Assembly: GCF_988243305.1 (NCBI RefSeq)
Contig: NZ_OZ547136.1
Length of the DNA: 64,000 nucleotides
Direction: 5' to 3' (one strand)
Below are positions 8,523 through 10,288 of the stretch, one piece after another. A program made the position numbers and the translations under genes. How positions within the stretch are numbered: the stretch's first letter is position 1; every line of letters starts with the position of its first letter. A model generated the notes under the pieces. That model searched no databases. It was not told the origin of the DNA and saw only the letters and a program-made list of their open reading frames with translations.

Positions 8523-10288
8523 ATGAATAATTCTATTAACCATAAATTTCATCACATTAGCCGGGCTGAATACCAGGAATTGTTAGCCGTTTCCCGTGGC
8601 GACGCTGTTGCCGATTATATTATTGATAATGTCTCTATTCTCGACCTGATCAATGGCGGAGAAATTTCCGGCCCAATTGTGATTAAAGGGCGTTACATTG
8701 CCGGTGTTGGCGCAGAATACACTGATACTCCGGCTTTACAGCGGATTGATGCCCACGGCGCAACGGCGGTGCCAGGGTTTATTGATGCTCACCTGCATAT
8801 TGAATCCAGCATGATGACGCCGGTCACCTTTGAAACCGCTACCCTGCCGCGTGGCCTGACGACCGTTATTTGCGACCCTCATGAAATCGTCAACGTGATG
8901 GGCGAAGCCGGATTCGCCTGGTTTGCCCGCTGTGCCGAACAGGCAAGACAAAACCAGTACTTACAGGTCAGCTCTTGCGTACCCGCCCTGGAAGGCTGCG
9001 ATGTTAACGGTGCCAGTTTTACCCTTGAACAGATGCTCGCCTGGCGGGACCATCCGCAGGTTACCGGCCTTGCAGAAATGATGGACTACCCTGGCGTAAT
9101 TAGCGGGCAGAATGCGCTGCTCGATAAACTGGATGCATTTCGCCACCTGACGCTGGACGGTCACTGCCCGGGTTTGGGTGGTAAAGAACTTAACGCCTAT
9201 ATTGCTGCGGGTATTGAAAACTGCCACGAAAGTTATCAGCTGGAAGAAGGACGCCGGAAATTACAACTCGGCATGTCGTTGATGATCCGCGAAGGGTCCG
9301 CTGCCCGCAATCTCAACGCACTGGCACCGTTGATCAACGAATTTAACAGCCCGCAATGCATGCTCTGTACTGATGACCGTAACCCGTGGGAGATCGCCCA
9401 TGAAGGACACATCGATGCCTTAATTCGCCGCCTGATCGAACAACACAATGTGCCGCTGCATGTGGCATATCGCGTCGCCAGCTGGTCGACGGCGCGCCAC
9501 TTTGGTCTGAATCACCTGGGCTTACTGGCACCCGGCAAGCAGGCCGATATCGTCCTGTTGAGCGATGCGCGTAAGGTCACGGTGCAGCAGGTACTGGTGA
9601 AAGGCGAACCGATTGATGCGCAAACCTTACAAGCGGAAGAGTCGGCGAGACTGGCACAATCTGCTCCTCCGTATGGCAATACCATTGCCCGCCAGCCAGT
9701 TTCCGCCAGCGACTTTGCCCTGCAATTCACACCCGGAAAACGCTATCGGGTAATTGACGTCATCCATAACGATTGATTACCCACTCCCGCTCCAGCGTCT
9801 ACAGCGAAAATGGTTTTGATCGCGATGATGTGTGCTTTATTGCCGTACTTGAGCGTTACGGGCAACGGCTGGCTCCGGCCTGTGGTTTGCTCGGCGGCTT
9901 TGGCCTGAATGAAGGTGCGCTGGCTGCGACGGTCAGCCATGACAGCCATAATATTGTGGTGATCGGTCGCAGTGCCGAAGAGATGGCGCTGGCGGTCAAT
10001 CAGGTGATTCAGGATGGCGGCGGGCTGTGCGTGGTACGTAACGGCCAGGTCCAAAGTCATCTGCCGTTACCCATTGCCGGGCTGATGAGCACCGACACGG
10101 CGCAGTCACTGGCGGAGCAAATTGACGCCTTGAAAGCCGCCGCCCGTGAATGCGGTCCGTTACCCGATGAGCCGTTTATTCAGATGGCGTTTCTTTCCCT
10201 GCCAGTGATCCCCGCGCTGAAACTAACCAGTCAGGGGCTGTTTGATGGCGAGAAGTTTGCCTTCACCACGCTGGAAGTCACGGAATAA
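8523..10288 (+). pseudogene. ade: Adenine deaminase, split by an apparent -1 frameshift near 9773-9776
   Basis: Two abutting ORFs in different frames (8523..9776, 417 aa; 9773..10288, 171 aa) sum to 588 aa, the remembered length of E. coli Ade; junction reads ...cataacgaTTGAtta..., consistent with loss of a single A. Confidence 0.75.

Follow-up and report, generated by a model that had tools for sequence, protein, structure and literature searches.

A single-base deletion, most probably genuine and recent, disrupts the adenine deaminase gene adeD in an Escherichia coli subclone

In Escherichia coli K-12, adenine deaminase (EC 3.5.4.2; NF007457, TIGR01178) is encoded by adeD (ade, yicP, b3665), and the protein consists of an Amidohydro_1 domain followed by an Adenine_deam_C domain. 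Homologous but distant enzymes, with intact genes, are Atu4426 of Agrobacterium tumefaciens (PDB 3nqb/3t81/3t8l) and YerA of Bacillus subtilis (PDB 9jql, C-terminal domain); the comparison with them is confined to where the break falls among the domains and to the likely fate of a truncated enzyme. The authors of the YerA study propose that the C-terminal domain is an active-site lid that adds substrate-contacting residues, and YerA constructs without this domain were invariably insoluble (PMC12133300). Expression of ade in K-12 is described, in those parts of PMC2753651 and PMC13274399 that cite Petersen et al. 2002, as silenced by H-NS and activated by IS insertions. A literature search for E. 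coli strains with an ade pseudogene gave no relevant result. The locus considered here lies in a stretch of 64,000 nucleotides on contig NZ_OZ547136.1 of RefSeq assembly GCF_988243305.1 (the window) and shares its chromosomal position, synteny, and order of domains with K-12 adeD. Once its reading frame is repaired, the gene encodes a protein with 5 substitutions in 588 residues relative to K-12 AdeD. Unlike K-12 ade, the gene in the window lacks one A at nt 1250 and carries a premature stop after residue 417.

The disrupted adeD occupies positions 8523..10288 on the plus strand and measures 1766 nt, compared to 1767 nt for the intact gene. A mechanical list of open reading frames divides it into an N-terminal ORF of 417 aa plus a TGA stop (8523..9776, plus strand) and a C-terminal remnant of 171 aa (9773..10288, plus strand), the TTG start of which corresponds to Leu418 of the intact protein. 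The two frames share 4 nt, TTGA, at 9773-9776. A sequence-only reading of this DNA had proposed that these two overlapping frames jointly make up the 588-aa Ade, and both the ORF list and a profile search bear this out: the NCBIfam adenine deaminase model NF007457, which has 588 positions, aligns to the 417-aa ORF over profile positions 1-417 (906 bits, E 7.7e-273) and to the 171-aa ORF over positions 418-588 (339 bits, E 2.8e-101). The 417-aa ORF alone exceeds the curated cut-off of the model (906 versus 768 bits). At the nucleotide level, adeD of the window is 98.0% identical to K-12 adeD, with one gap of 1 nt.

Both neighbors of the gene are intact. Upstream and divergently transcribed is adeQ (7014..8348, minus strand), encoding an adenine permease, which has 100% nucleotide identity to adeQ of strain SC418, and downstream is uhpT (10334..11725, minus strand), encoding a hexose-6-phosphate:phosphate antiporter. 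The gene order adeQ-adeD-uhpT is common to the window, K-12, SC418, and every other E. coli examined. The AT-rich intergenic region between adeQ and adeD (8349..8522), which holds the promoter, is the same as in sister assemblies with an intact gene, and no IS insertion was seen within it. By analogy with the literature on K-12, this region may be an H-NS-silenced promoter. By sequence, domains, and synteny, the locus is adeD; it departs from that identity only in having no uninterrupted ORF of ~588 codons.

To locate the indel, the sequence-only reading had proposed an alignment to K-12 ade. Such an alignment identifies a single missing A, at K-12 nt 1250 (1250/1251) and window position 9772/9773, as the sole indel across the whole gene. 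Near position 9772, intact genomes read AACGAATTG and the window reads AACGATTG; when the junction is aligned to three intact adeD genes, the window has AACG-ATTG against AACGAATTG, with one A missing. The deletion site proper spans 9771..9773 on the plus strand, with G-A-T in the window and G-A-A-T in intact alleles. Translated, the intact codons AAC GAA TTG ATT (N-E-L-I) become AAC GAT TGA in the window, such that codon 417, GAA (Glu417), is short of one A, residue 417 changes from E to D, and a TGA stop follows at 9774-9776. Reinserting one A gives a 1767-nt ORF of 588 codons with a single terminal stop.

The sequence-only reading had also offered a homopolymer error as an alternative, a context that the alignment does not support, as the missing base belonged to an AA dinucleotide and not to a homopolymer run. 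The local sequence after the deletion is a perfect GATTGATT tandem, which makes slippage or misalignment between the quasi-repeats GAATT and GATT a plausible origin of the deletion. Most likely, the A was lost from GAATTGATT through slippage during replication or through misalignment, which left the perfect GATTGATT repeat.

Elsewhere within ade, at window positions 9689-9710 (ade nt ~1146-1174), there is an 8-bp direct repeat, CCGCCAGC, with a spacing of 14 bp. Exactly at this repeat, other public assemblies carry either a 14-bp tandem duplication (CCGCCAGCCAGTTT) or deletions of 17 bp or 19 bp. These duplications and deletions suggest that the CCGCCAGC repeat region could be a minor hot spot at which slipped-strand events inactivate ade.

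We asked whether the missing base is a true mutation or an artifact, the two alternatives that the sequence-only reading had left side by side. Single-base deletions are a classic long-read error, and an artifact of this kind would mean that the gene is intact and that the sequencing chemistry or polishing lost one A. In two other public assemblies with an indel in ade (ECZU34 BNGB01000002.1 and NCTC UFZN01000003.1), several neighboring genes are broken, and these assemblies do look error-prone. The window presents a different picture. Its nearest complete genome is SC418, at 99.1%, with every other complete genome at or below 98.3%. Over ~62 kb of collinear sequence the window and SC418 differ by six single-base indels, of which five are intergenic and the ade deletion is the only coding one; all of the other genes shared with SC418 (55/55) are full length in the window. 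The assembly of the window is not frameshift-prone. These observations, together with a sequence context of merely AA, speak against the error alternative.

Read-level evidence, which consists of Logan assemblies made directly from reads and not of pile-ups, points in the same direction. The exact pair of 417-aa and 171-aa genes is called in the Logan assemblies ERR2932835 and ERR15422816, and the Logan contigs match the window with 100% identity from end to end (18,450 and 5,077 bp), deletion included. The ERR2932835 contig is common to 6 samples and, with ERR15422816, gives at least 7 sequencing runs in which the same deletion was assembled from reads, although these runs may be one isolate resequenced and show reproducibility rather than prevalence or population spread. 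They serve in effect as the raw-read check proposed in the sequence-only reading, and the frame is not restored in them.

Sister isolates provide a further comparison. Two assemblies, GCA_044323295.1 and GCA_966556975.1, match the window over 20,288 bp at all but two positions. At the lesion site, in identical flanks, both read AA, with GAATT and an intact 588-codon gene; at position 16378 both have a G. The latter site is a derived single-nucleotide polymorphism (16378..16378), with A in the window and G in SC418 as well as in the intact-ade sisters, and it results in S219L in a hypothetical protein of ~490 aa. The same 16378 G>A change is present in a deletion-bearing read assembly and constitutes a second marker for the same subclone. 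The deletion thus cosegregates with another derived mutation, as a heritable change that defines a subclone would and a base-calling error would not. More broadly, 186 index blocks of the collection contain an exact match to the repaired 588-aa protein. Given the recurrence of the deletion in Logan assemblies of at least 7 runs and its linkage to the SNP at 16378, we consider a sequencing or assembly error extremely unlikely. We are correspondingly confident that the adeD frameshift is a genuine and recent deletion in a subclone, and that it has produced a loss-of-function pseudogene.

The deletion appears to be rare among available genomes. A 40-mer centered on it, with megablast seeds forced across the site, was found in 0 of 5,426 complete E. 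coli genomes, 5,407 of which carry the adeD locus in one piece. An exact 32-mer spanning the junction had no matches in GTDB species-representative genomes and none in JGI metagenome contigs. Other ade lesions do occur in public assemblies: a single base is lost at nt 1078 or gained at nt 1085, 14 bp are tandemly duplicated at nt 1167, and 17 bp or 19 bp are deleted at nt 1146-1174. In some other E. coli contigs, an IS200-like Y1 transposase lies between ade and uhpT.

Two candidate signs of a wider distribution were rejected. The 171-aa remnant occurs in 42 index blocks, which could be taken for a wide spread of the lesion; these occurrences instead reflect different upstream lesions or scaffold gaps, and some of the contigs with an identical remnant, among them those of ECZU34 and an NCTC assembly, come from visibly error-prone or metagenomic assemblies. 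A 417-aa protein ending in HNE could likewise be mistaken for the product of the same lesion, and it is instead an intact K-12-like ade cut off by contig ends at nt 1251-1253. At least 13 such K-12-like ade contigs, from unrelated samples, end 0 to 2 nt from codon 417. A shared break or insertion hot spot was rejected as an explanation because the ends vary by 0 to 2 nt and because a look-up by exact length selects truncations. Given this variation and the absence of foreign sequence at the ends, we judge that the clustering of contig ends at codon 417 most likely arises because the exact-length look-up selects from very many truncated K-12-like contigs.

The position of the break bears on what remains of the enzyme. 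Pfam assigns residues 82-362 of the repaired protein to Amidohydro_1 and residues 434-579 to Adenine_deam_C, and the break at 417/418 falls between these domains, leaving the whole amidohydrolase (beta/alpha)8 catalytic domain on the 417-aa ORF. An alignment to PDB 3nqb covers residues 21-541 (E 9.6e-77), with the HxH (DAHLHIESS) and CTDD motifs conserved. Both motifs reportedly supply metal ligands. Translation from the normal ATG would run into TGA immediately after residue 417 and would yield the barrel fragment without the 171-aa C-terminal domain. This fragment is probably inactive or unstable. The 171-aa remnant is probably translated inefficiently, if at all, given its weak UUG start and the lack of a Shine-Dalgarno motif, none having been found in the 27 nt upstream of the TTG. 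The next in-frame starts in the remnant are a GTG at 9830 and a TTG at 9887. A null allele is the most likely outcome, and from the sequence we infer that the strain has lost the function.

Some features of the junction could be read in favor of a functional split enzyme, in which UGA/UUG termination-reinitiation would supply a 417-aa and a 171-aa chain that associate noncovalently into an active adenine deaminase. The break falls at a domain boundary; the overlap of stop and TTG (TTGA) is compatible with translational coupling and could in principle permit some reinitiation; and the C-terminal domain of YerA folds alone, having been crystallized by itself (PDB 9jql). Were this true, the locus would capture, as it occurs in nature, the fission of a gene between two of its domains. 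However, the start and its upstream sequence are as weak as described above, the N-terminal YerA constructs without the C-terminal domain are insoluble, and the arrangement is a tip variant only two mutations old, absent from all 5,426 complete genomes, and not a conserved architecture. We therefore regard a functional split enzyme as highly improbable.

The full-length protein might also be recovered by programmed recoding, either through a -1 ribosomal frameshift or through transcriptional slippage, and on paper a -1 shift at the GAT/TGA junction does restore the frame. Neither a slippery heptamer nor a long homopolymer is present at the junction ATAACGATTGATTACC, though, and ATAACGATTGATT contains no X_XXY_YYZ motif or extended run of A/T. 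The frameshift is moreover absent from the complete E. coli genomes, the GTDB representative genomes, and the JGI metagenome contigs, and the intact ancestor allele is abundant. The probability of recoding is thus negligible.

Adenine salvage should remain possible through Apt and through DeoD plus Add, as established for the pathway. In view of these routes, and of the silencing of ade by H-NS in K-12 under laboratory conditions, the phenotypic cost of the deletion is probably small.

We then considered the age of the lesion and the selection acting on the gene. Comparison of the repaired allele with K-12, SC418, and strain C1 gave dN/dS values of 0.05, 0.02, and 0.045, respectively. Such values (about 0.02 to 0.05) show that strong purifying selection has kept ade throughout E. 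coli. Relative to SC418, the segment downstream of the break has 0 amino acid changes, which indicates that secondary decay has not set in and that the loss is recent. Likewise, with intact sisters that differ at only two sites in 20.3 kb, the lesion must be very recent, a mutation of the subclone. The sequence-only reading had considered a pseudogene plausible for a gene reported as cryptic and silenced by H-NS. Silencing agrees with Petersen et al. 2002, at least as that work is represented in the citing portions of PMC2753651 and PMC13274399; general decay of the gene does not agree with a dN/dS of ~0.02 to 0.05. Although ade is called cryptic in laboratory K-12, it is under purifying selection, and its loss here is thus a recent exception and not a sign of dispensability at the level of the species.

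The deletion would be inherited clonally, and its simplest reading is as a neutral or nearly neutral change not yet removed by purifying selection. Alternatively, the loss may have been adaptive, with positive selection for the deletion acting, for example, against a drain on adenine or against side activities of the di-iron enzyme. The several independent ade lesions (the insertion at 1085, the duplication at 1167, and the deletions at 1146-1174) might be cited in support of such selection. However, a query that selects for such lesions is what brought them to light, and some belong to low-quality or metagenome assemblies. The species-wide dN/dS indicates retention, as does the unbroken locus in 5,407 of the 5,426 complete genomes, and a gene that is silent in K-12 under laboratory conditions would impose little cost. 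We consider adaptive loss very unlikely, and a nearly neutral deletion remains the reading that we prefer.

Several other features of the window were recorded in the course of the comparison. Positions 1-~4100 (minus strand) contain the 3' part of a gene for a giant inverse autotransporter adhesin, called iatC in SC418, which runs off the start of the window; its internal Big_1/Invasin_D3 repeats are ~82% mutually identical and produce multiple self-matches at 1-678. Between nepI and yicN (5733-6393) lie overlapping ORFs resembling a RelE/ParE-like toxin and an MqsA/HTH-type antitoxin. SC418 and the sister assemblies share this toxin/antitoxin-like pair, which is absent from K-12, where nepI adjoins yicN. 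The interval between uhpA and ilvN contains hypothetical ORFs at 15564-17054 and 17309-18616 (minus strand), also found in SC418 and the sister assemblies, one of ~490 aa and the other of 160 or 431 aa depending on the annotation; neither had an NCBIfam, PADLOC, or recorded Pfam match. At ~46107-46118, between gyrB and yidB, the window is without the ~700-bp frameshifted tnpA insertion of the IS200/IS605 family found in SC418. Conversely, ~2.6 kb between mnmE and tnaC (56766-59388) is missing from SC418. This segment includes an ORF of 727 aa (56914..59097, minus strand) that matches Pfam PF07906, "ShET2 enterotoxin N-terminal region" (E 1.3e-45), and that has no NCBIfam or PADLOC match. On the basis of this domain, the segment looks like a ShET2/SenB-like effector island.

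For annotation, our results mean that the locus should be described as one frameshifted adeD pseudogene and not as two genes or as a "hypothetical protein," as one source calls the identical remnant of 171 aa from another strain. Together with the linked 16378 G>A change, the deletion could serve to mark the subclone. Frameshifts of this sort are not peculiar to the window: in this region SC418 carries two of its own, in yieH and tnpA. What the window contains is an ordinary strain-specific frameshift pseudogene of a well-known gene, of a kind already known and involving no new mechanism. Like other E. coli pseudogenes that PGAP annotates as "frameshifted," it reflects a single, recent, lineage-restricted lesion, and only the gene affected and the position of the break are particular to it.
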